This document shows positions 26,650 through 43,584 of a DNA stretch of 64,000 nucleotides, piece after piece. Source of the DNA: Longimicrobiales bacterium (lineage in GTDB: Bacteria > Gemmatimonadota > Gemmatimonadetes > Longimicrobiales > Gaopeijiaceae); assembly GCA_965202805.1 (NCBI GenBank), contig OZ241869.1:352001-416000 (forward strand). The letters are read 5' to 3'. Under the pieces are notes generated by a model. It made no database searches. It was not told the DNA's origin and saw nothing but the letters and a program-made list of their open reading frames with translations. Position numbers and translations under genes: made by a program. Positions within the stretch are counted from its first letter, which is position 1; every line of letters starts with the position of its first letter.

Positions 26650-29226
26650 TTACACTCTCCCCCGAAACAGCATCCCATTCAACCTTGCCTGCCACTCGTC
26701 CTCGTCCACGACCTCGAAGCGCATCACCTTGCTCCGCATCGCGGGCGCGAACTCGGCCCAATCGGCCTTGCGGGCATGTTCGCTGCAGATGTCGAAGACG
26801 GAGCGCTTGTACTCGGTGTCCTCCGCTTCCTTCAGGTGAACGCCCTTGGTTTCGACCACGAACACCTGGTGGAAGCCATCGTCCGCCCCGGCTTCGTCGT
26901 CCCTCAGCGCCACGACGAAATCCGCGTAGATCCGGCGCGGCTTCCAGCCCTGCACGAAATAGTCCTTGCGGGCGCGGTTGCGGTACCAGAAGAAGAGGCG
27001 CGCCTGCTGGTCCAGATAGGTCGCGACCTTGTTCTCGAACTGGTTGAGATCGTCCTCCGTGGTGACGTCGAAGAGGTTGCGCTGGTACGGACTGCCATCC
27101 TCCCGGTTGGCCCGCTTTGTCTTCGGAACCTCGATCTTCGCGGGAAGGCGATTGGATTGGAGATCCTCCGTAACGACCAGAAAACGCATCCGCCCCGACT
27201 CCAGGAGATTGCGGAAGACCTCGCGGGACAGGCGATCCCGTTCGCTCTCGAGGTGTCGGCGGAGTTCTTCTAGCACGAAGACGTGGTTGGCGGTGACGCG
27301 CTCGGCGGAGTAACGCTCAAGCAGGGCCTCGAAGGCGCGCCGGGCCAGATCGCGACCGCGCCACGGGTTGGGAACCAGGTCCAGGAGGTGGCTGGCGGCG
27401 AAGAAGTAGTCCACCGGTGGCCCGCCGTTGCCCGACTCGACATCGTCGGAGGCTTCGACGTTTCCGGTATCGCTGCCAATGCCCTCCGGCTCCAAGACCG
27501 GCCCCGCCTCGATCAGGTTCGTCCGTAGCAGCACATCTCCACCCCGCCTCTTGTCCAGCGTCAGATCGTCCAGCGCCGAGAGGTCGATGTCGTCCCAGGG
27601 CAGCCGCGAGAGAATGTCCGCCTCGTAGTGGACGAGACGCCAGCCGTCCACGTCCCGGATCATGAAGGCGGGAAGGACGAGATCGCGAACCGCCGCTTGA
27701 TACCGCTTCCGCTGCCGGGTGGCCAGCTTCTCCGTTGGGCGGGCCGGGCCGCCGTCGGAAACCACCCTGCCTTCGAGGCCCTGCAACCCCTCCAGCCCGA
27801 ACCCCTTCCTGACCTCCTTCAGCAGCTCGTTTCCCCGGCGGCTGAAGCAGAAGACGTAGCTCTCGTCAAGCAGGGGCACACCCGTCTTGCATGCGTAGGG
27901 CTGCCGCAGGATCCGGCCCACCAGCTGGGTGATACCGGTCTTCGACATCGGGTTGGTGAGGATGGTGAGAATGTAGGCGAACGGGCAGTCCCAGCCTTCC
28001 TGAAGCGCTTGCTTGGTGATGATGAATCGGATCGGGCAGTCGCGGGACATGAGACCGCCAACGTCGTCCACCTCCTTCAACTCGTCCTTCGCGCTCGTCT
28101 TGACCGCAACATGCTCCCGGCTGATTCCCGGGTGCTGGAGCAGGTATTCGCGCACGTCGTCGGTGTGGATGTACCCGGGCTTCCGCTGCTGCCTGCCGGT
28201 TCTCTCCACCTGGATTACACAGATGGGCCGGATGTACGTCCCGGACTCGGCTTCATGATGCCGCGCCGCGGCCTCCAGATGCTCCCGGTGTTCAACAGAC
28301 TCCAGCAGTGTGCCCCGCCAGTCACTGCTCGCCTTGTTCCGGATGTGCAGATCGAGCTTGATCATCTCCTCGTCGTTGAGTTCCCGGCCCAGGATCTCGA
28401 CCAGCACGTTGGCGCCCCTGGCCGGAGTGGCCGAAAGCTCGACGATCATGCACGGGTTGAACCCTTCGAGCGTCTTCTTCGCGTTGACGCTGTACGCCTT
28501 GTGTCCCTCGTCGAGGATGATCAGCGGCCGCAGCCACCGTACCGTATTCCCGAGGGAAGTCTTGATGTACCGGCCCCAGAAGCCTGCGGATTGCTCGAAA
28601 GTGTCCAGATTGGGGTTGTCCTCCAGCATTCCGGCATGCGCCGTGGGATCGTCGTCCGGAGGAAAGAACCGGTCGAAACCCCCGCTGTCGCGGAACATCC
28701 GGAGGGTGTCCTTCGTTTTCCGGTTCGCTGACGGGAGCATCAGCACAAGAACGCAGAGGTTCTCGGCGACATCGCGCGGGCCGAACGCCGCGGTCTTCTC
28801 GAAGATGCGCGTGCGCTGACCCGAAGACAGATCGAGTTGCTGGCGGTAGGGATGGTCGCGGTCCTTGAGCGCCCTGAGCGTCTGGTTGTAGATCTGCGTC
28901 GTGGGCACGATCCACAGCACCAGGCCGCGCCGACTCTGCCGGAAGTGCGCGTTGACGAGATCGATTACCCGCGTGGCGAGCAGCGTCTTGCCGCCACCGG
29001 TCGGGATCTTGAGGCAGAAGGCGGGAAAACGCTCGCCGAGTCCATTGCGACGGGAGTGGAACGGCCGCCCACGGACGGTCCTCCTCCACGCCTTTCCCAC
29101 CCAGTCCGTACCCCAGTTCGGATTGTGCCGTCGCGCCTCTTGGTCTTCAGCCCGCGACTTCGCCAACTCCGCGACGAAGCGGCGGACCGTAGCCAACGTC
29201 CGTTTCTGATATTCCTTAAGGATCAT
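26650..29226 (-). CDS. res: Type III restriction endonuclease subunit (SF2 helicase + PD-(D/E)xK)
   Basis: MILKEYQ (Q motif), IPTGGGKT, LDEGHK, LQEGWDCP, QLVGRILRQP, YADFVV...VETKG. ATG 29226 overlaps the mod stop. Confidence 0.9.
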   Translation of the reverse strand: MILKEYQKRTLATVRRFVAELAKSRAEDQEARRHNPNWGTDWVGKAWRRTVRGRPFHSRRNGLGERFPAFCLKIPTGGGKTLLATRVIDLVNAHFRQSRRGLVLWIVPTTQIYNQTLRALKDRDHPYRQQLDLSSGQRTRIFEKTAAFGPRDVAENLCVLVLMLPSANRKTKDTLRMFRDSGGFDRFFPPDDDPTAHAGMLEDNPNLDTFEQSAGFWGRYIKTSLGNTVRWLRPLIILDEGHKAYSVNAKKTLEGFNPCMIVELSATPARGANVLVEILGRELNDEEMIKLDLHIRNKASSDWRGTLLESVEHREHLEAAARHHEAESGTYIRPICVIQVERTGRQQRKPGYIHTDDVREYLLQHPGISREHVAVKTSAKDELKEVDDVGGLMSRDCPIRFIITKQALQEGWDCPFAYILTILTNPMSKTGITQLVGRILRQPYACKTGVPLLDESYVFCFSRRGNELLKEVRKGFGLEGLQGLEGRVVSDGGPARPTEKLATRQRKRYQAAVRDLVLPAFMIRDVDGWRLVHYEADILSRLPWDDIDLSALDDLTLDKRRGGDVLLRTNLIEAGPVLEPEGIGSDTGNVEASDDVESGNGGPPVDYFFAASHLLDLVPNPWRGRDLARRAFEALLERYSAERVTANHVFVLEELRRHLESERDRLSREVFRNLLESGRMRFLVVTEDLQSNRLPAKIEVPKTKRANREDGSPYQRNLFDVTTEDDLNQFENKVATYLDQQARLFFWYRNRARKDYFVQGWKPRRIYADFVVALRDDEAGADDGFHQVFVVETKGVHLKEAEDTEYKRSVFDICSEHARKADWAEFAPAMRSKVMRFEVVDEDEWQARLNGMLFRGRV

Positions 29227-30929
29227 CCTTCCAGCCTGTCGATCGCTTTGTAGATCTGGAACGGCAACTGCTGGAAGTCGATCCGGTACCGGTGAAGGAA
29301 ATCGCGGTCCAGGTACTTGGTCGGCGCGAAGACGAGCTTTCGCCTCGATCCGGCGGGAAGGGCGCGGGCCTCGGCCAGCGACAGCGCGAGACTCTTGAGC
29401 TTGTCGACATCCGGCTCGTAGAAGAGGAAGACATCGTGGGACGCCGTGCGCCCGATGAACCCGGTTCTCCGGTCGGTCTCGGACGGGTCGAACTCCTGCC
29501 CGGTCGCGGTGAAGAAGATGTAGGACGCGAGCTTCTCCCACGACGGCAGGTGGGAGCCGTCGAGGAGCGACTCCTGACGCATGGGACGCCCGAGCTCGAA
29601 GTAGCTGAAGGTGCCGCCGAGGCCGGTCTTGAGGGCGTCGTCCCTGGCGGTCGGAACCCCCTTGATGACGCGGCGGACGCGCTCGGCGGTGATGTTGTCC
29701 GCGTAGTCTTCACACTCGACGAGGATGAAGCGCCGGTTGCCACCGTCTTCCCGGTTCTGGGCGAGGACGGCGTGCGCCGTGGTGCCGGAACCGGCGAAGG
29801 AGTCGAGGACGATGGAGTCTCTATCGGTTGCGAAGGAAAGCAGGTCACCGATGAGTGTGGACGGCTTGGGGTTCTTGAAGATGCGACGGTTCTCTGGGAA
29901 GATCTCTCCGATTTCGTTTGCCCCGCGACGGGAGTCGATCCCTTGGATGATGCTACCCAGCTTCGCTTTATAGTCGTCGACGTATACCTTGAGCTCGATG
30001 ATCTTCGTCTCGTCCTTTCCAAACAGGACTCGCTCTTCTGACAGCAGTCGCTCCATCGTGGATGGCGGGAAGCGATAGCCCATCAGTGGCTGCCTGCATG
30101 GCTTGCCGGTCACCGGATGGAGCACGTCATAGCGGTAGCCCTCCCGGCCCGGGTTGTGGACGCTCTGGCTACCCGTGAAGACTCCCGCATCGTCGATGAA
30201 TTTGTAGCGATCCAACGGCTTGAGCTGCGCTCGATGTTCCTTTAGCCAGCGGGAGTACTCTCGCTGGCGCTTGGCCGGATCTGGATGCGAGTCGACAAGC
30301 TCGGCGCCAATGCGCTGAAGCGCCCCCTTCGGCCCGAAGGCCGCCGACTTCCACTGCTCCTCAAGCTCGTCCTTGTTGACGGCATAGCAGACGATGTACT
30401 CGTGCTCCGTGGCGATATTCGTCGGGTTGTTGTCGGTAGAGCCGTGCCAGATGATTTGCCCGACACGGTTCCGCTCTCCGAACACCTCGTCCATCAGACA
30501 GCGCAGGTGGTGCAGCTCGTTGTCGTCGATGGACACGAAGATCACGCCATCCTCTCGAAGCAGCTCGCGCAGCAGCTTCAGGCGCGGCATCAGCATGCAG
30601 GACCACTTGTCGTGGCGGGTCAGATCATCTCGGTCCACGACACGTCCCAGCCAAGCCCGCATGAGGGGCGAATTCACCTTGTCGTTGTACGCCCACCCCT
30701 CCTTGCCCGTGTTGTAGGGCGGGTCGATGTAGATGCACTTGACCTTGCCGTGATAGGTCGGCAGCAGCGACTTAAGGGCGGCCAGGTTGTCGCCGTGAAC
30801 GATCAGGTTGTCGCGCAGGCTGGCCTTCTCGCTCAGCCCCTTCTCGCGCACCGGCAGCAGTTCGTGGAAGGGTACGGCCAAGTGATGGTTCTCGACGAAG
30901 ACCTTCCCCTTGAATTGGAGCCGTGGCAA
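29223..30929 (-). CDS. mod: Type III adenine-specific DNA methyltransferase
   Basis: GDNL, IYIDPPYNTG, FVSIDDNE, NPKPS, LDSFAGSGTT (beta-class motif order). Confidence 0.92.
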   Translation of the reverse strand: MPRLQFKGKVFVENHHLAVPFHELLPVREKGLSEKASLRDNLIVHGDNLAALKSLLPTYHGKVKCIYIDPPYNTGKEGWAYNDKVNSPLMRAWLGRVVDRDDLTRHDKWSCMLMPRLKLLRELLREDGVIFVSIDDNELHHLRCLMDEVFGERNRVGQIIWHGSTDNNPTNIATEHEYIVCYAVNKDELEEQWKSAAFGPKGALQRIGAELVDSHPDPAKRQREYSRWLKEHRAQLKPLDRYKFIDDAGVFTGSQSVHNPGREGYRYDVLHPVTGKPCRQPLMGYRFPPSTMERLLSEERVLFGKDETKIIELKVYVDDYKAKLGSIIQGIDSRRGANEIGEIFPENRRIFKNPKPSTLIGDLLSFATDRDSIVLDSFAGSGTTAHAVLAQNREDGGNRRFILVECEDYADNITAERVRRVIKGVPTARDDALKTGLGGTFSYFELGRPMRQESLLDGSHLPSWEKLASYIFFTATGQEFDPSETDRRTGFIGRTASHDVFLFYEPDVDKLKSLALSLAEARALPAGSRRKLVFAPTKYLDRDFLHRYRIDFQQLPFQIYKAIDRLEG

Positions 30930-37043: not shown

Positions 37044-37445
37044 CTATGCAGCACCACCGGCGTGTTCCGTGATCAGAAAGCGCCAGCGTAGCTGTAGCCC
37101 GAACCAGAGCAGGGAAGCGACGGCCAGAATCAGGGTGCCGAGCGCGGAGCTGAGGAGCGCGACCTTGATGCCTCCCCAGACCAGCCCGGCCGAGAGTCCC
37201 TCCATGGTCTCGATGGCCTGAGCGGCGATGATAATGCCGACCAGCGTGCTCAGTACTCCGGTAATGACCGCGAATCCTCCCCAGAACAGAATGGCGTCGA
37301 TCCAGGCCTTGGCATGCCGGTCCGGCATGGCGTCGGGCTTGACGAGCCGGAACGACCTGAGCGCGAGGGCAACGACGGCCAGCAGGGAGAACGCGAGGGG
37401 CCAGCGCATGACGCCCATGGCTTGAAAGGCTTCGATAGCGCTCAT
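37044..37445 (-). CDS. small MotA/TolQ/ExbB-like membrane protein
   Basis: Three TM helices; GVLSTLVGIIIAAQAI...LVWGGIKVALLSSALG pattern; ATGA overlap with the upstream gene. Confidence 0.75.
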   Translation of the reverse strand: MSAIEAFQAMGVMRWPLAFSLLAVVALALRSFRLVKPDAMPDRHAKAWIDAILFWGGFAVITGVLSTLVGIIIAAQAIETMEGLSAGLVWGGIKVALLSSALGTLILAVASLLWFGLQLRWRFLITEHAGGAA

Positions 37446-38329
37446 GATGATTCTCCTGGCGACTGGGGATGGTTTGGATGCGCAGGGTCGGGCGACCGCG
37501 GCGCTCCGGGGCGGATGTTCGGCAGGGGATGGCCCAGCAGCTCGGCGTGCGCCCCGGATACGAGTGCGAGCCGGTGTGCCGGAATGAACCAGGCCAGCCC
37601 TCCGGCCAGGGCCAACAGCAGCGAGAACGAGAGCAGGACGCAGCTCCCGGCCAGCCACTCGGGGAGGAGCGACGCGCCCAGCCCGGGTTCGGCCTCCAGT
37701 ACCCCGGCGAGCCGGAAGAAGTCGGCGAAGGCGCCGAAGATGCCCGTGGCAAGCGTCAGGCCGGACAGGAACAGGATGACCCGGAAGTCCGCTGCCGGAT
37801 CCTGATGATCGTGCTTGACCCATAGCCTGAACGACTGGGTGGCGATAGCCGCGAACAGGATTGCGCCGAGTCCGAGAACCGGCCACAGGAAGGGCGACGC
37901 ATGACGGAGCCAGTCGACCCGCAGGAGCAGGAAGGTTCCCGCGAGAAGCACGACCGCGGTGCCCAGGGCGAGAGCCGAGCGCTCGATGGTTCGCAGACGG
38001 CCGGGACTGAAGTGGCGGGTGAGTCGGCGGTAGTGCGGGGCGTGCAGCCGGTCGAGTTCGCGGAGCGTCGCCCCGTCGGGCACGAGGGCATCCAGCGCAC
38101 GAGCGCGAGCCTCCGCCGCCGGCGTGCCCCGGGCTTTGATTTCGTCCGTGAGCGCCTCGAGGTCGAACTCGAGTTCGCGCAGGATCCTGAGGCGGTCCGG
38201 CATGGGGACCGTCAGATCCCGATCCAGCCTGCGCAGCGTAGCCTGGAATGGCTTCGGGTCGGCTGGCTTCGCGTGCGCCAATTCCGGTGGCCGCGACGGC
38301 CACTCCCGCGGCGGGACTTCGGCGTTCAC
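37442..38329 (-). CDS. membrane protein: N-terminal HAAS-like helical domain + MotA/ExbB-like TM domain
   Basis: LRRLDRDLTVPMPDRLRILRELEFDLEAL...EARARAL resembles PadR-partner domains; TM part aligns by eye with 37044-37445; GTGA overlap with the padR stop. Confidence 0.65.
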   Translation of the reverse strand: MNAEVPPREWPSRPPELAHAKPADPKPFQATLRRLDRDLTVPMPDRLRILRELEFDLEALTDEIKARGTPAAEARARALDALVPDGATLRELDRLHAPHYRRLTRHFSPGRLRTIERSALALGTAVVLLAGTFLLLRVDWLRHASPFLWPVLGLGAILFAAIATQSFRLWVKHDHQDPAADFRVILFLSGLTLATGIFGAFADFFRLAGVLEAEPGLGASLLPEWLAGSCVLLSFSLLLALAGGLAWFIPAHRLALVSGAHAELLGHPLPNIRPGAPRSPDPAHPNHPQSPGESS

Positions 38330-38697
38330 GCCGGGAGTTCCCGCGCCCGGCGCAGCATTCGCGTGAGCCCGGACAGGATCTCCTGAACCCGGTCCGTTTG
38401 TCCGCTGAGATGCCTGCGGCCGGCATCCGTCATGGAATAGACCTTCTTCCTGCGCCCTGGTCCGCTCGACCACCGGCCCAGGATGAGCCCGTCCACGTCC
38501 ATCCGGTGCAGGATCGGATACAGGGTGCCGTGCCGGAACCGAAAGACCCCGTTGCTGTGCGCCTCCACATCCAGGGCGATCTGGTAGCCGTGCCTGGGAC
38601 CCTCCCGCAGGGCGGCGAGGATCAGCAGTTCGTGAATTCCCCGGGCGAAGCCCTGGGCGTCGAATTCGCGGGTGCTGCGGGAGCCTGGTTTGGTCAT
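38326..38697 (-). CDS. PadR-family transcriptional regulator
   Basis: LLILAALREGPRHGYQI...GTLYPILHRM...RRKKVYSMTDAGRRHL. Confidence 0.92.
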   Translation of the reverse strand: MTKPGSRSTREFDAQGFARGIHELLILAALREGPRHGYQIALDVEAHSNGVFRFRHGTLYPILHRMDVDGLILGRWSSGPGRRKKVYSMTDAGRRHLSGQTDRVQEILSGLTRMLRRARELPA

Positions 38698-40814
38698 GGC
38701 CGATCTTGCCTCCGTGAGTGCAGTTCGAGCTCCGACTCTTCCGCCTGGTTGGATGTGATGTCTCTCACGATACGAAAACCATACATGTTGTAGCGGTCAC
38801 TCCAGGGACCCGGCCAGTAGAAACCGCGGTAGGCAGCCGTTACCGACCACGAATAGGATGACCAGAAACCGCCTCGCCTTACGGGCCGGACACAGGTGCC
38901 ATCCTGCCACCATGGAGAATCCTCCGTCCTCGCGGAGCCATCGCCGGGATTCCCTTCATGAGTGTCGTTCCAGCAGTCGGCAACCCATTCCCGCGCGTTC
39001 CCGAGCACGTCGTGGAGTCCGAACGGGTTGGCCGGAAACGACCCGGCGGGGGTCGTCGTTCGGAGTTCCCATTTACCCCGGCAGCCTTCACAGGTGACCA
39101 TGCCGGCGCCGGGCCCATCGCCCCAATAACGGGTTGTCGTCGTACCGCCTCGCGCGGCGTATTCCCACTCGGCCTCGCTGGGCAGTCGGTAGGTTTGACC
39201 GGTGAGGTCGCTGATCCATGTGACGTACTGGTCGGCATCGGGACGGGAGAGGTTGACCACCGGCCGGTCGCCGCGTCCCCAGCCGTTGTCGTCGGGCGCA
39301 TACGTGCACCCTCCGGCGTCGACGCAGAGGTCCCATTCCGCGAATGTCACTTCATACTTCCCGATGGCGAAGGGATACGCAATTCGCACCTCGGTGGGCG
39401 GGTTCTGCGCCTCGACCGTCCACTCGGGTTGCGGCGCGTCCGCGGGATCCGGCTTCTCGTGCGCGCCTCGTCCCATCACGTATTCGCCTGGAGGCAGTTC
39501 AACCATCAAGGGACATTCCGGACAGTCGCGAAACTCACGAAATCCGGACGAAGTCGGAATCCGCGGGTTGGTGGAAGCACCGCCTTCGGTCGTCGGCACC
39601 GCAGCGGCATCCGCAGGGCGCAGGTGGTAGAGAGAGACGATGGTCTCTCCGACCGACTCCAGCCGAAGACCCGCGAAGACCGAGTCGGACAGCACGGCAA
39701 CCGGAACCCCGGGTGCGTCGAACGACCCCGTGTACTCTCCCGAGGAATCGAAGATGTCGACGAAGTGGGGCGTCATCCCGTCCGTAGTGCGGGTCACCCA
39801 AAGATCGCCTCCGGGTGCTGCAGTCATCGACAGCACGGGCGAGACCTGCTCCTCGTATCCGACCGCCATCACGATGTCCTCCGCCTCCAACCCGAAGCGT
39901 CGCATGAATATGCCGTAGGGACCGGGGCCGAACTCCGCACCCCTCACGGCCATCTCCCGCGTGACTTCGATGGGATCCACCGACCATCTGATGCTCGCCA
40001 CCACCGAGCCGTCTACATGCTTGTCGATGCGGTAGCCCGGCCCGTTCAGGAAGAAGATGGAGTCTCCCCGGTGCGTCCAGATGACCGAAGGAGCAAGCAC
40101 TCGGGGCGCCGGAATGGAGCTGCCGCCCAGCTCCATCGTCGCCAGTTCCATCGCGACTTCATGCAGCGTCGTCGTATTCTGTCCTCCCTCGACGACAAGT
40201 CGCTGCTCCGTAACCGTCCCCGAAGACGAGGTGGTACTCGTCACCGTGGCGAGCCAGTCGCTTCCGATCGCGAATCCCGGACCCCAGTAGGGCAGTTCCG
40301 GTCGCTGCTCGCCCAGGAGTTCGCCCTCGCTCGACCAGCGGCTCAGCATCTGTCGGCCGGTATCCCACACGGTCAGTATTCCGTCGGGATCCAGGGAGAC
40401 GGCGGAAGAGTTCCGAAACTCTCCGGGTCCGTCCCCTGAACGTCCATAGCTGCCCGCGTAGGCCCCTGAAGCGTCGAAGGCCGCGACTCTCTGCCCCGTC
40501 CAGTCCGCCAGGTAGATCCGGCCTGACGTCGGGTCTGCGGCCACGCCCCACGGAACTGCCGTAAGCGCACTGTCGGGAGGGATGAGATCGATCATTCGCT
40601 CCGCTCGGATGCCCAGCAGTTCCTCCGGACCGATGTTGTCGACTACCGTCACGCCTGCGGAATCGCGCACAAGCGCGGCCCGAACGTCGCGAGACGTCGG
40701 CTCGCACGAGCTGGTAGCCAGCGCCAGCATCACGGCGATCCATGGAGTGGCTGTTGGAGATGAATGGCGTAGCGGGGCGGCGCATGGCGGGTGGGCTCGC
40801 GTTCGTGCTTGCAT
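38694..40814 (-). CDS. lipoprotein: 6-bladed beta-propeller + FGE-sulfatase (SUMF1/EgtB/PvdO, C-lectin fold) domain
   Basis: LATSSC lipobox, RDSAGV, GRSGDGPGEF (NHL-like), FRDCPECPLMV, YRLPSEAEWEYAARGG, NPFGLHDVLGNAREW, GFRIVR. Confidence 0.88.
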   Translation of the reverse strand: MQARTRAHPPCAAPLRHSSPTATPWIAVMLALATSSCEPTSRDVRAALVRDSAGVTVVDNIGPEELLGIRAERMIDLIPPDSALTAVPWGVAADPTSGRIYLADWTGQRVAAFDASGAYAGSYGRSGDGPGEFRNSSAVSLDPDGILTVWDTGRQMLSRWSSEGELLGEQRPELPYWGPGFAIGSDWLATVTSTTSSSGTVTEQRLVVEGGQNTTTLHEVAMELATMELGGSSIPAPRVLAPSVIWTHRGDSIFFLNGPGYRIDKHVDGSVVASIRWSVDPIEVTREMAVRGAEFGPGPYGIFMRRFGLEAEDIVMAVGYEEQVSPVLSMTAAPGGDLWVTRTTDGMTPHFVDIFDSSGEYTGSFDAPGVPVAVLSDSVFAGLRLESVGETIVSLYHLRPADAAAVPTTEGGASTNPRIPTSSGFREFRDCPECPLMVELPPGEYVMGRGAHEKPDPADAPQPEWTVEAQNPPTEVRIAYPFAIGKYEVTFAEWDLCVDAGGCTYAPDDNGWGRGDRPVVNLSRPDADQYVTWISDLTGQTYRLPSEAEWEYAARGGTTTTRYWGDGPGAGMVTCEGCRGKWELRTTTPAGSFPANPFGLHDVLGNAREWVADCWNDTHEGNPGDGSARTEDSPWWQDGTCVRPVRRGGFWSSYSWSVTAAYRGFYWPGPWSDRYNMYGFRIVRDITSNQAEESELELHSRRQDRP

Positions 40815-40838
40815 GGGGGACTTCCTCCGTTCGCATCC

Positions 40839-40883
40839 TATCGAGATACGACATAACGATAGTCATTATAACGAGTGCCGATA
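40839..40883. promoter_or_regulatory. paired TATCG-N5-CGATA palindromes around a sigma70 promoter (minus strand TTGCCT-16-TATAAT)
   Basis: tatcg-agata-cgaca (40839-40853) and taacg-agtgc-cgata (40869-40883), 30 bp apart. Confidence 0.7.
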
Positions 40884-41052
40884 GAAAGGCAACATGATGA
40901 AGCCCCTCCGGCGAGGGGAGACCGATGGGCACGTTGCCACACGACGCAGGGCGGCGCGTTTGCGGGGGGATTGGTGGAGACCTGTGTTCCAGGGCGCTAT
41001 GGCACCCAGGCGCGTGCAGCGACACCGCAGGCGAGTATGAGTCAGTTGCGAT

Positions 41053-42231
41053 TCAAGGTGCTGGCTTCTCCGCTGGGTCCGATGCGATGGATCGAACCAG
41101 GCGAAAGCCGGTCATGGTTTCTCGGTCGTCCCACGGGCCCGGCCAATGGTAGTGCCGAAAGGCAGCTGTTACGGACCAGGAGTAGGACGACCAGGAACTC
41201 CCTCGCCGCACGGGCCGTATGCAGGCGCCATCCTGCCACCATGGAGAATCCTCCGTCCTCGCGGAGCCATCGCCGGGATTCCCTTCATGAGTGTCATTCC
41301 AGCAGTCTGCGACCCATTCCGTCACGTTCCCGATTGTGTCGTGGAGTCCGAACGGATTGGACGGGAACGACCCTGCGGGAGTTGTGTTCCTGAGTTCCCA
41401 TCGGCGGCCCGGGCAGCCTTCACAGGTGAGCATGCCGGCGCCGAGCCCGTCCCCCCAATAGCGGGTTGTCGTCGTGCCGCCTCGCGCGGCGTATTCCCAC
41501 TCCGCCTCGCTGGGCAGGCGATAATCCTGACCCGTGCGGTCGCTGATCCATGTGACGTACTGGTCGACGTCGGGACGGGCGAGGTTGATCACCGGCCGGT
41601 CGTCGCGCCCCCAGCCGTTGTCGTCGGGCACATACGTACACCCTCCGGCGTCGGCACAGAGGTCCCATTCCCCGAACGTGATCTCATACTTTCCGATGGC
41701 GAAGGAGTACGCGATCCGCACCTCGGTGGGCGGGTTCTGCGCCTCCACCAGCCACTCGGGTGGCGGCGGGTTTCCGGGATCCGGCTGCTCGTGCGCGCCT
41801 CGTCCCATCACGAACTCACCCGGAGGCAGTTCGACCATCAGGGGGCATTCCGGACAGTCGCGAAACTCGTGAAATCCGGACGACGTCGGGATTTGCGCGT
41901 TGACGGCCGCGCCCGTCTCCCCTGAGGGGTCAATCGCCGTGCCCCGCTCGTTCGATTCGAAGTTCGCGATTCCCGTCACGCCTGCGGAGTCGCCCGCTGG
42001 TGCGGACTGCTCGTCGCGAGGCGTCGGCTCGCACGAGCCGGTGGCCAGCGCCAGCACGGCGGCTATCCATGGATTGGCTGTTGGAGATGGATGGCGCCAA
42101 GGGGCGTCGCATGGCGGGTTGGCTCGCGTTCGCCCTCCCGGGCGGCGGCGAGGACCAGCAGCTCGTGGAGCCCCCGGGCGAAGCCGTGCGCGTCGCATTC
42201 CAGGCCGGACGGCGAGATCTGGTTTGCTCAT
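41053..42231 (-). CDS. FGE-sulfatase-domain lipoprotein whose 5' end derives from a frameshifted padR relic
   Basis: Same FGE motifs; 42133-42231 is homologous to padR 38600-38697. Confidence 0.8.
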   Translation of the reverse strand: MSKPDLAVRPGMRRARLRPGAPRAAGPRRRPGGRTRANPPCDAPWRHPSPTANPWIAAVLALATGSCEPTPRDEQSAPAGDSAGVTGIANFESNERGTAIDPSGETGAAVNAQIPTSSGFHEFRDCPECPLMVELPPGEFVMGRGAHEQPDPGNPPPPEWLVEAQNPPTEVRIAYSFAIGKYEITFGEWDLCADAGGCTYVPDDNGWGRDDRPVINLARPDVDQYVTWISDRTGQDYRLPSEAEWEYAARGGTTTTRYWGDGLGAGMLTCEGCPGRRWELRNTTPAGSFPSNPFGLHDTIGNVTEWVADCWNDTHEGNPGDGSARTEDSPWWQDGACIRPVRRGSSWSSYSWSVTAAFRHYHWPGPWDDRETMTGFRLVRSIASDPAEKPAP

Positions 42232-43340
42232 GGCTGATCTTGCCTCCGTGAGTGCAGCTCGAGGTCCAACTCTTCCGCTTGGCTGGATGTGATGTCTCGC
42301 GCGAGACGAAAACCAGACATGTTGTAGCGGTTACTCCAGGGGCCCGGGTGGTAGAAGGTGCGGTAGGCAGCCGTTACGGCCCACGAATAGGATGTCCATG
42401 TACCGTCTCGCCTCACCGGTCGGATGCAGGTGCCGTCCTGCCACCACGGAGATTCCTCTATCCTCGCGGAGCCATCGCCGGGATTCCCTTCATGTGTGTC
42501 ATTCCAGCAGTCTGCAACCCATTCCCGTGCATTCCCGATTACGTCGTGGAGCCCGAAGGGATTGGCTGGAAACGATCCAGCAGGGGTGGTGTGATTGTCC
42601 GATCGGCCTGGACAGCCCTCACAGGTTACCATGCCGGCGCCGAGCCCGTCCCCCCAATACCGGGTTGTCGTCGCGCCGCCTCGCGCGGCGTATTCCCACT
42701 CCGCCTCGCTGGGCAGGCGGTAGGTCTGACCCGTGAGTCCGCTGATCCACATGACGTACTGGTTGACATCGGGATGGGCGAGGTTGATCACCGGCCGGTT
42801 GTCGCGCCCCCAGCCGTTGTCGTCGGGCACATACGTACACCCTCCCGCGTCAACGCAGAGGTCCCATTCCCGGAACGTTACTTCGTACTTGCCGATGGCG
42901 AAGGAGTATGCGATTCGCACCTCGGTGGGCGGGTTCTGCGCCTCCACCATCCACGCGGGTTGCGGCGGGTTCCCGGGATCCGGCTTCTCGTGCACGCCTC
43001 GTCCCATCACGTATTCGCCCGGAGGCAGTTCCACCATCAGGGGGCATTCCGCGCAGTCGCGAAACTCGTGAAATCCGGAAGAGGTCGGGATCTGCGGGTT
43101 GGCGGCTGCGCCCGTCTCCCCTGAAGGGTCGATTGCCGTAACCCGTTCGTCCGGTTTGAAGTTGGCGGTTTCCGTCACGCCTGCGGAGTCGCGTGCAAGT
43201 ACCGACTGCTCGTCGCGAGGCGTCGGTTCGCACGAGCCGGTGGCCAGCGCCAGCATGGCGGCGATCCATGGCCTGACTGTTGGAGGTGGATGGCCCCAAG
43301 AGGTGTCGCGTGGCGGGTTGGCTCGCGTTCGCATGTGCAT
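42228..43340 (-). CDS. FGE-sulfatase-domain lipoprotein
   Basis: LATGSC lipobox, FRDCAECPLMV, RLPSEAEWEYAARGG, GFRLAR. Confidence 0.88.
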   Translation of the reverse strand: MHMRTRANPPRDTSWGHPPPTVRPWIAAMLALATGSCEPTPRDEQSVLARDSAGVTETANFKPDERVTAIDPSGETGAAANPQIPTSSGFHEFRDCAECPLMVELPPGEYVMGRGVHEKPDPGNPPQPAWMVEAQNPPTEVRIAYSFAIGKYEVTFREWDLCVDAGGCTYVPDDNGWGRDNRPVINLAHPDVNQYVMWISGLTGQTYRLPSEAEWEYAARGGATTTRYWGDGLGAGMVTCEGCPGRSDNHTTPAGSFPANPFGLHDVIGNAREWVADCWNDTHEGNPGDGSARIEESPWWQDGTCIRPVRRDGTWTSYSWAVTAAYRTFYHPGPWSNRYNMSGFRLARDITSSQAEELDLELHSRRQDQP

Positions 43341-43359
43341 TGCGAGATCTCCGGCGTGC

Positions 43360-43404
43360 TATCGATGGTCGTTATTAGGACTCACAACATATCGATACAC
43401 GATA
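43360..43404. promoter_or_regulatory. paired TATCG-N5-CGATA palindromes
   Basis: tatcg-atggt-cgtta (43360-43374) and perfect tatcg-ataca-cgata (43390-43404), 30 bp apart. Confidence 0.7.
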
Positions 43405-43584
43405 GGTGGTGGCAACCTGATCAGCCCCGGTCTCGGCCGGCGTCGGCCGCACCTGTCCGCAGCAGCCGGCAGGTGGCGGTCGCGGTGAGTCGGCGCGGAT
43501 CCGATGAAAACACGTCACCTCGCCCGGTATCCGGGCGGGGCCGTGCATGGGTGCCCTCGTGCCAGCAGGCACTCCTCCGCGAGT

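Follow-up and report, generated by a model that had tools for sequence, protein, structure and literature searches.

To our knowledge, all characterised MotA/ExbB/TolQ proteins act as rotor rings around a B-subunit dimer. The locus described here lies in a 64,000-nucleotide stretch of the genome of a Longimicrobiales bacterium (GenBank assembly GCA_965202805.1, contig OZ241869.1, positions 352,001 to 416,000; this whole stretch is called the window). In it, a gene for a short PadR-family repressor is followed by genes for two membrane proteins that profile comparisons trace to ExbB/TolQ, one with four transmembrane (TM) helices and an N-terminal HAAS-like domain (HAAS-ExbB), the other a chain of only 133 amino acids (aa; mini-ExbB), and lipoproteins with propeller and FGE-type domains are encoded beside them. 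We propose, with a probability of about 0.6, that this triad is an autoregulated HAAS–PadR switch whose membrane sensor is a mixed ring of repurposed ExbB chains.

The locus resembles the HAAS–PadR dyad, in which, according to the available part of PMC11237479, a stand-alone short PadR immediately precedes a protein that has several TM helices and, at its N-terminus, a three-helix domain; in that source the binding of HAAS to PadR is itself only a proposal. Examples of such dyads are padR with ADOP MacB/FtsX permeases and the Listeria LltR–Lmo0600–Lmo0601 operon (PMC6624303, available part), which is self-regulated and in which an exported protein, Lmo0601, may follow. The locus differs from the dyads in that the TM domain is of ExbB origin and is accompanied by a second, HAAS-less paralog, and in that the GxP motif is mostly reduced to xP or absent. 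We conclude that the triad works like a HAAS–PadR dyad and is a member by context, with one motif lacking.

With the 5:2 proton motors ExbB–ExbD(–TonB) and TolQ–TolR (PMC12905483, available part) the membrane proteins share the three-TM fold, the GxxGT..G hairpin and, in most mini-ExbBs, hydroxyls at the T148 and T181 positions. They differ in having no cytoplasmic domain, no pore prolines and no adjacent ExbD or TonB, and moreover one paralog is fused to a regulatory domain and the operon is coupled to a repressor. Judged by the sequence tests that were run, the triad is not a 5:2 motor. LytTR regulatory systems combine a transcription factor with a small membrane protein in an autoregulated operon and signal without phosphorylation; the window has another regulator family and an ExbB-type membrane domain.

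For the described FGE-subtype C-lectin proteins, namely PvdO, GldK/GldJ and the diversity-generating retroelement (DGR) proteins TvpA/TaqVP (PMC6328139, available part), the NCBIfam matches at this locus are far below cut-off, and lipoprotein variation here, unlike that of DGR variable proteins, is about two-fold and comes via duplication and reshuffling. Zorya ZorAB differs as well, judged by length and position: the 133-aa chain has no ZorA tail, and the OmpA matches lie elsewhere. At genome positions 645304-647888, an OmpA-domain gene comes after a weak match to MotA_ExbB, an arrangement that resembles a Zorya zorAB pair. The terms MotA and ExbB are absent from the main text of PMC11237479, and MotA, ExbB and TolQ from one of its supplementary files, its larger tables and web app lying outside this coverage; PMC12204202 mentions neither PadR nor HAAS, and PMC12505986 does not mention PadR. 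Literature searches, with most subscription papers outside their coverage, returned no description of the module.

The conserved triad

The features of the locus are as follows.

43359..43405, no strand: putative PadR operator at the FGE1 promoter; three palindromic 17-bp boxes with a 15-bp period; sigma70-like -35 at 43415 and -10 ending at 43386.
42228..43340, minus strand: FGE1, lipoprotein (Cys37 lipobox) with an FGE-type C-lectin-fold domain (PF03781, E 1.8e-38) without the FGE catalytic cysteines.
41053..42231, minus strand: FGE2, a recent duplicate with lipobox Cys67, whose N-terminus (about 42231-42126) is a frameshifted remnant of the padR 5' end.
40838..40884, no strand: putative PadR operator at the promoter of the four-gene operon; three palindromic boxes with a 15-bp period over TTGCCT-16-TATAAT.
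38694..40814, minus strand: propeller-FGE lipoprotein, first gene of the operon; six-bladed beta-propeller and FGE-type C-lectin-fold (PF17170, PF01436, PF03781).
38326..38697, minus strand: padR, short PadR-family repressor of 123 aa (PF03551, 82 bits).
37442..38329, minus strand: HAAS-ExbB, the 4-TM protein of 295 aa; HAAS-like N-terminus, one extra TM helix and an ExbB-derived 3-TM domain, with D203 in the pore-lining helix.
37044..37445, minus strand: mini-ExbB, the small protein of 133 aa; PF01618 over cut-off, three ExbB TM helices without the cytoplasmic domain.

Four-base stop/start overlaps join FGE1 to FGE2, propeller-FGE to padR, padR to HAAS-ExbB (GTGA) and HAAS-ExbB to mini-ExbB. 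A sequence-only reading of this DNA had described a translationally coupled chain running from the propeller-FGE gene through padR to the two membrane protein genes, and the overlaps and coordinates bear it out. A scan of the locus found no terminator. The best NCBIfam match of PadR, padR_acidobact, is below cut-off. A 460-aa open reading frame (ORF) read through to 38426 and the long calls P0393 and P0394 were rejected as shadow-frame extensions rather than fusions.

The conserved core consists of three genes, those for PadR, the 4-TM protein with its HAAS-like N-terminus and the 133-aa mini-ExbB. At every one of 39 GTDB loci obtained from the 4-TM alignment (of which L039 is internally deleted and L018 and L032 are cut by contig ends), padR precedes the 4-TM gene and the mini gene follows it. 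Of 102 distinct loci, 101 have padR, 101 have the mini gene (partly by selection, some loci having been chosen via the mini gene) and 100 have both, while the flanking genes are unrelated and vary freely. A propeller is found in 34 and an FGE domain in 30; these counts, like those of cargo, are lower bounds because some loci are only 3 kb long. The expectation that the arrangement recurs in other genomes is therefore upheld. We consider padR, HAAS-ExbB and mini-ExbB, on the evidence of gene order and overlaps, to be a conserved, translationally coupled unit behind a palindrome-covered promoter.

A second padR/4-TM/mini copy lies in the same genome at 2581877-2583437, with no lipoprotein gene beside it. 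When 401 genomes of the class were sampled, 103 had a match to the wide 4-TM profile; the profile also matches 542 clusters (50% identity), one KSB1 protein among them. Named relatives are mostly Gemmatimonadota and Longimicrobiales bins, the Atlas clusters of the 4-TM protein are Gemmatimonadota only and unnamed, and the same triad occurs on one metagenome contig of 33% GC. Genes of the OmdA, DUF4287-AHSA1, PEMT, CMD and beta-lactamase families lie downstream of other triads as cargo; a PEMT/ICMT-family gene adjoins the triad at two Gemmatimonadota loci (L105:4583-5032 and L107:5337-5807) and on the 33%-GC contig (L165:386-859). Two loci carry a tandem pair of mini-ExbB genes behind the HAAS-ExbB gene (L034:8765-9546, L109:4807-5661), and in P0371, P0391 and L130 a HAAS N-terminus and a C-terminal helix of the mini type are joined in a single chain, a hybrid that looks like the product of recombination between the paralogs.

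The two ExbB-like membrane proteins

The mini-ExbB scores 24.9 bits against Pfam MotA_ExbB (cut-off 22.9), and its profile matches the genome's full-length ExbB twice, at TM1 (E 5e-9) and again at the pore hairpin (E 3e-19); between TM1 and TM2 the mini lacks about 70 residues of the cytoplasmic part. The structural model (pLDDT 86) aligns over 132 residues with ExbB 6ye4 (VIA Z 10.4, root-mean-square deviation 2.5) and with TolQ (Z 10.1, 2.8, 132 aligned), scores that tie with those of unrelated bundles such as CorA (Z 10.8, deviation 5.0); the top five Foldseek rows are all TolQ (E 0.014-0.036). The 4-TM protein matches no Pfam family in the Pfam scan. Compared pairwise with the mini it gives 34% identity (BLASTP, E 8e-5) or 31% (hhalign). 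The TM part of the wide 4-TM alignment, however, matches all 63 minis scored (median 35.3 bits; reversed sequences -5.0, maximum 3.4), and full-length ExbB/TolQ at 25-28 bits; the best PDB sequence match of the wide profile is TolQ (E 0.0012). We conclude from these profiles that both membrane proteins derive from ExbB/TolQ. Their supposed paralogy within the MotA/ExbB family, weak in pairwise comparison, is thus clear with the deeper profile. The Foldseek check suggested at the outset thus points to TolQ for the mini; the model of the 4-TM protein (pLDDT 79.6; N-terminal helices 29-38, 45-66 and 71-82) retrieved only generic helical bundles in searches that did not reach its N-terminal domain, and its tie to the family comes from the sequence profile.

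That domain had been supposed to be HAAS-like, and the homologs agree: perm_prefix_1 matches 103 of 115 of them at E<=0.05 (best 7e-8), Pfam HAAS just 2 of 115. The N-terminal half of the 4-TM profile also matches a padR-adjacent ADOP MacB/FtsX permease (E 3e-9), the ADOP permeases being a defined HAAS class in the available part of PMC11237479. Pro84 is present in 95/95 close and 60/115 wide homologs, with Leu, not Gly, two residues before it.

Within the pore, the minis have lost both prolines, which we take to be P141 and P190 in ExbB numbering: none of 96 minis keeps either, while full-length ExbB proteins have the first in 19/19 and the second in 6/6 aligned. Thr or Ser is retained at the T148- and T181-equivalents in 84/96 and 81/96 minis respectively, nine minis having Gln at the former; in ExbB these two residues pair with the ExbD Asp (PMC12905483, available part). 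The 4-TM paralog has lost both hydroxyls (Thr in 8/115 and 14/115 at the ring positions) and carries an acidic residue of the pore helix, D203, one turn further out (Asp/Glu in 95/115, Gly in 14/115). This acid could be a stand-in for the B-subunit Asp or could merely mark the membrane edge. A D203-R228 salt bridge was considered and dropped, as the Arg persists where D203 is Gly. A complex prediction with four minis and one HAAS-ExbB chain (score 0.23, mark 0.32) counts neither way.

The nearest relative of the mini is the lineage's own GGIKVALLTT-type ExbB, with which it has the GxxGT..G pore hairpin in common. Distant minis go down to about 30% identity, whereas ExbB hairpins are nearly invariant, and the hairpin tree is too short to root the origin of the minis. 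In the second copy, 60 nt of the hairpin loop in the mini gene match an exbB gene 15 kb away at 53/60 positions and the window copy at 34/60, an apparent gene conversion from exbB by this comparison. The second mini gene (2583036-2583437) contains a 108-nt tract 87% identical to the full-length exbB at 2567866-2568585, with flanks that match the window copy.

No MotB, ExbD, TolR or TonB gene had been seen nearby, and this holds: every ExbD, TonB_C and OmpA match in the genome is >200 kb away, MotB_plug has no match in the genome, and no short TM ORF that might be a hidden B subunit was found at window 35.5-43.9 kb. Nor does a cognate B subunit appear beside the triad in other genomes, which would have told against the proposal, for ExbD was found by three queries from the same genome at 0/102 triad loci, compared with 4/20 full-length ExbB loci in the same scan. 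Three ExbD/TolR proteins are encoded elsewhere in the genome, and ExbD may be supplied to the membrane pair in trans. A conserved second full-length ExbB (2567866-2568585; L144-L163) without adjacent ExbD exists beside an exbB-exbD-exbD operon elsewhere, which suggests mixed ExbB rings in this lineage.

Beyond the phylum, the Atlas groups the mini with PF01618 clusters of 124-131 aa, mostly from Bacteroidota. On the Persicobacter plasmid NZ_AP025293.1, a 123-aa mini-ExbB gene stands head-to-head with a multi-TM LytTR gene (L164:3990-5270); this mini has Gln at the T148-equivalent and no ExbD-sized partner beside it, and LytTR itself is membrane-anchored there, unlike in the LytTR regulatory systems. 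The viral scan gave no match, and the plasmid search only Persicobacter.

Putative operator arrays and lipoproteins

Where padR is the first gene, a 17-bp palindrome, ATAT(A/C)GA-N3-TC(T/G)ATAT, lies upstream of it; among 70 loci that have a second site, 66 repeat it at a distance of 15 bp. A 13-bp period was tried and dropped in favour of 15 bp. A matrix trained on 75 loci, this genus excluded, was used to scan the 4.02-Mb genome for triple arrays, and the arrays ranked 1 and 2 are those of the window, at 40838 (53.4) and 43359 (42.4). Eight column-shuffled matrices reached at most 17.3 anywhere and scored both window promoters below zero. In the promoter scan both arrays overlie sigma70-like promoters, and in 16/16 held-out loci of the genus, all close kin, the best site precedes the propeller match by 157-183 bp; a search with the promoter DNA matched 5 of 19 genus genomes and brought no further information. 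We infer that PadR is the protein that binds the boxes. The proposal that PadR autoregulates the operon gains support from the putative operators lying over both promoters. A third strong triple array (2071805-2071851) lies in an AT-rich stretch before a 186-aa gene that is DinB-like by appearance and is a possible regulon member; the genome triple-array scan revealed no wider regulon beyond it.

All three lipoproteins have lipoboxes and a Pfam FGE-sulfatase domain, the closest solved relative of propeller-FGE being PvdO 5hha (E 1.4e-30). The catalytic triad of FGE is Ser-Cys-Cys (S333, C336 and C341 of hFGE; PMC6328139, available part). None of 33 distinct FGE domains has a cysteine in the segment after RRGG, before which the PDB FGE matches end, so that the suggestion of non-catalytic domains is supported by the missing catalytic cysteines. 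Across 16 close domains, variability in segment 646-685 is roughly double that of the remainder (0.62-0.67 bits, against 0.02-0.41 elsewhere). Presumably this segment is the C-lectin binding region.

Members of one propeller subfamily (E 1e-86 or better) join the triad at four points of a tree from a quick IQ-TREE run, and these points fall on either side of the deepest split: in this genus the propeller gene is upstream, in a genus of another family and in G446 it is downstream, and G205 and G410 have it as a fusion. Some of this pattern may be due to horizontal transfer. The fusion P0395 (830 aa) has four members, which come from several sources; in it, mini-ExbB, a fourth TM helix, propeller and FGE domain follow one another with consistent topology. 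Fusions of mini-ExbB to the propeller via a fourth TM helix also occur in L086 and L131, and L072 has a separate mini-ExbB fusion to a periplasmic domain of propeller-like look that matches no Pfam family. A propeller-only lipoprotein (2556815-2558041), 56% identical to the window propeller, lies 24 kb from the second triad.

The two further FGE lipoprotein genes reported upstream of the operon are present, with the correction that FGE2 is a recent duplicate that starts in a padR remnant. It originated from a duplicated FGE-padR junction, its first ~35 codons being frameshifted padR (repeat D4, tblastn to padR 70%, DNA alignment), and is missing in the two closest relatives, L001 and L016. Because short-read contigs (two runs of one study, possibly from the source sample) span the FGE1/FGE2 and FGE2/propeller junctions with zero differences, the tandem array is no assembly artefact. 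Window 18726-44000 is of lower GC (0.61-0.68, against about 0.70), begins after a tRNA-Leu and includes a DNA methyltransferase-like gene at window 29223-30929; the 6.4-kb unit sits at its right edge, with flanks that differ in L001 and L016.

Mechanism and rival explanations

In the mechanism that we favour, PadR would bind the boxes and repress its own operon. The two ExbB-derived chains would form a mixed inner-membrane ring that no longer turns an ExbD axle; this ring would sense a membrane-active compound or a membrane state and pass the change to the cytoplasmic HAAS domain, which would then bind PadR and lift repression. The propeller/FGE lipoproteins would be a swappable cassette under the same operator, and would most likely bind ligands while docked to the ring from the periplasmic side, whether as signal input or as induced output.

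Several observations weigh against this proposal. The perm_prefix_1/HAAS match of the window 4-TM protein is below the curated cut-off, and the GxP kink motif of helix 3 is not kept, Gly standing directly before Pro in 13/115 homologs. The retained Thr/Ser ring of the minis looks as if a B-subunit Asp were still served, and the three-query ExbD scan may miss divergent B subunits. Moreover, 16 of 20 fetched full-length ExbB loci also have no adjacent ExbD and, because lone full-length ExbB is common in the lineage, a missing B-subunit neighbour is weak evidence for a missing partner. The LytTR pairing is a single example, the 16 held-out operator loci are not independent, and lipoproteins are missing from about two thirds of loci (FGE 30/102) and from the second triad copy.

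This last point bears on the place of the lipoproteins, which the sequence-only reading had made part of the module. They have an operator in common with the triad and are attached to it recurrently, and we regard them, from shared operator, four-branch attachment and the direct mini-ExbB fusion in one clade, as linked to it; they stand outside its core all the same, as co-regulated accessories that may be outputs rather than input. The full chain proposed earlier, with a lipoprotein as input, seems to us doubtful. Just as doubtful is the view that abundant propeller/FGE genes landed behind a regulated promoter on a mobile cassette and have no physical tie to the membrane pair. More than 30 propeller-like tblastn matches in the genome speak for it, as do the loss of lipoproteins from the second copy, which once had them to judge from relatives, and the changed flanks of the 6.4-kb unit at the edge of a lower-GC stretch beside tRNA-Leu. 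It accounts poorly for a single propeller subfamily that occurs on four branches, has two gene orders and on one branch is an in-frame fusion, and for the retention by the duplicated FGE1 of its own operator array. Somewhat less probable still is a broader scheme in which a B-subunit-free MotA/ExbB ring is a general receptor: swappable propeller/C-lectin lipoproteins with a variable segment would feed its empty pore or periplasmic face, the HAAS-ExbB Asp/Glu would replace the B-subunit Asp, and the ring, made of mini-ExbB and HAAS-ExbB chains, would switch a transcription factor. One and the same module would then serve PadR in Gemmatimonadota and a membrane-anchored LytTR in Bacteroidota.

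The pair might also sit inside ordinary ExbB/ExbD motors, with ExbD in trans, and there inform PadR of motor occupancy or of the proton-motive force, or have a damping effect on the motor. The mini pore hairpin, which closely resembles its counterpart in the lineage's ExbB, the Thr/Ser ring that most minis retain, the apparent conversion from exbB into the second-copy mini and the conserved ExbB without adjacent ExbD all fit such an arrangement, which we nevertheless think unlikely: the minis have lost both prolines and the cytoplasmic domain, the HAAS paralog has lost both hydroxyls, nine minis have Gln at the T148-equivalent, and distant minis have diverged to about 30% identity while ExbB hairpins are nearly invariant. 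Some PadRs bind drugs directly, and it is conceivable that this one binds a small molecule itself, the membrane pair being an induced output (a small channel, leak or resistance pore) helped by lipoproteins and cargo. The cargo families near other triads and the pore-helix acid in 95/115 HAAS-ExbB proteins would suit such an output, and the Listeria DUF1700 membrane protein Lmo0600 is harmful once its PadR is lost (PMC6624303, available part). HAAS is, however, proposed as a PadR-binding signalling module in the available part of PMC11237479, the acid is Gly in 14/115 and may only mark the periplasmic edge, and the one case of mini-ExbB with a membrane-anchored LytTR suits sensing better than efflux; we therefore hold this the least probable of the explanations considered.

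If the preferred reading of an autoregulated switch with a mixed ExbB ring is true, a stripped ExbB tied to transcription factors would show a motor scaffold reused for signalling. With its three small genes, its predicted operator of 17 bp and its natural fusions, which hint at the input domain, the triad would also be a compact test case for the proposed HAAS–PadR mechanism.

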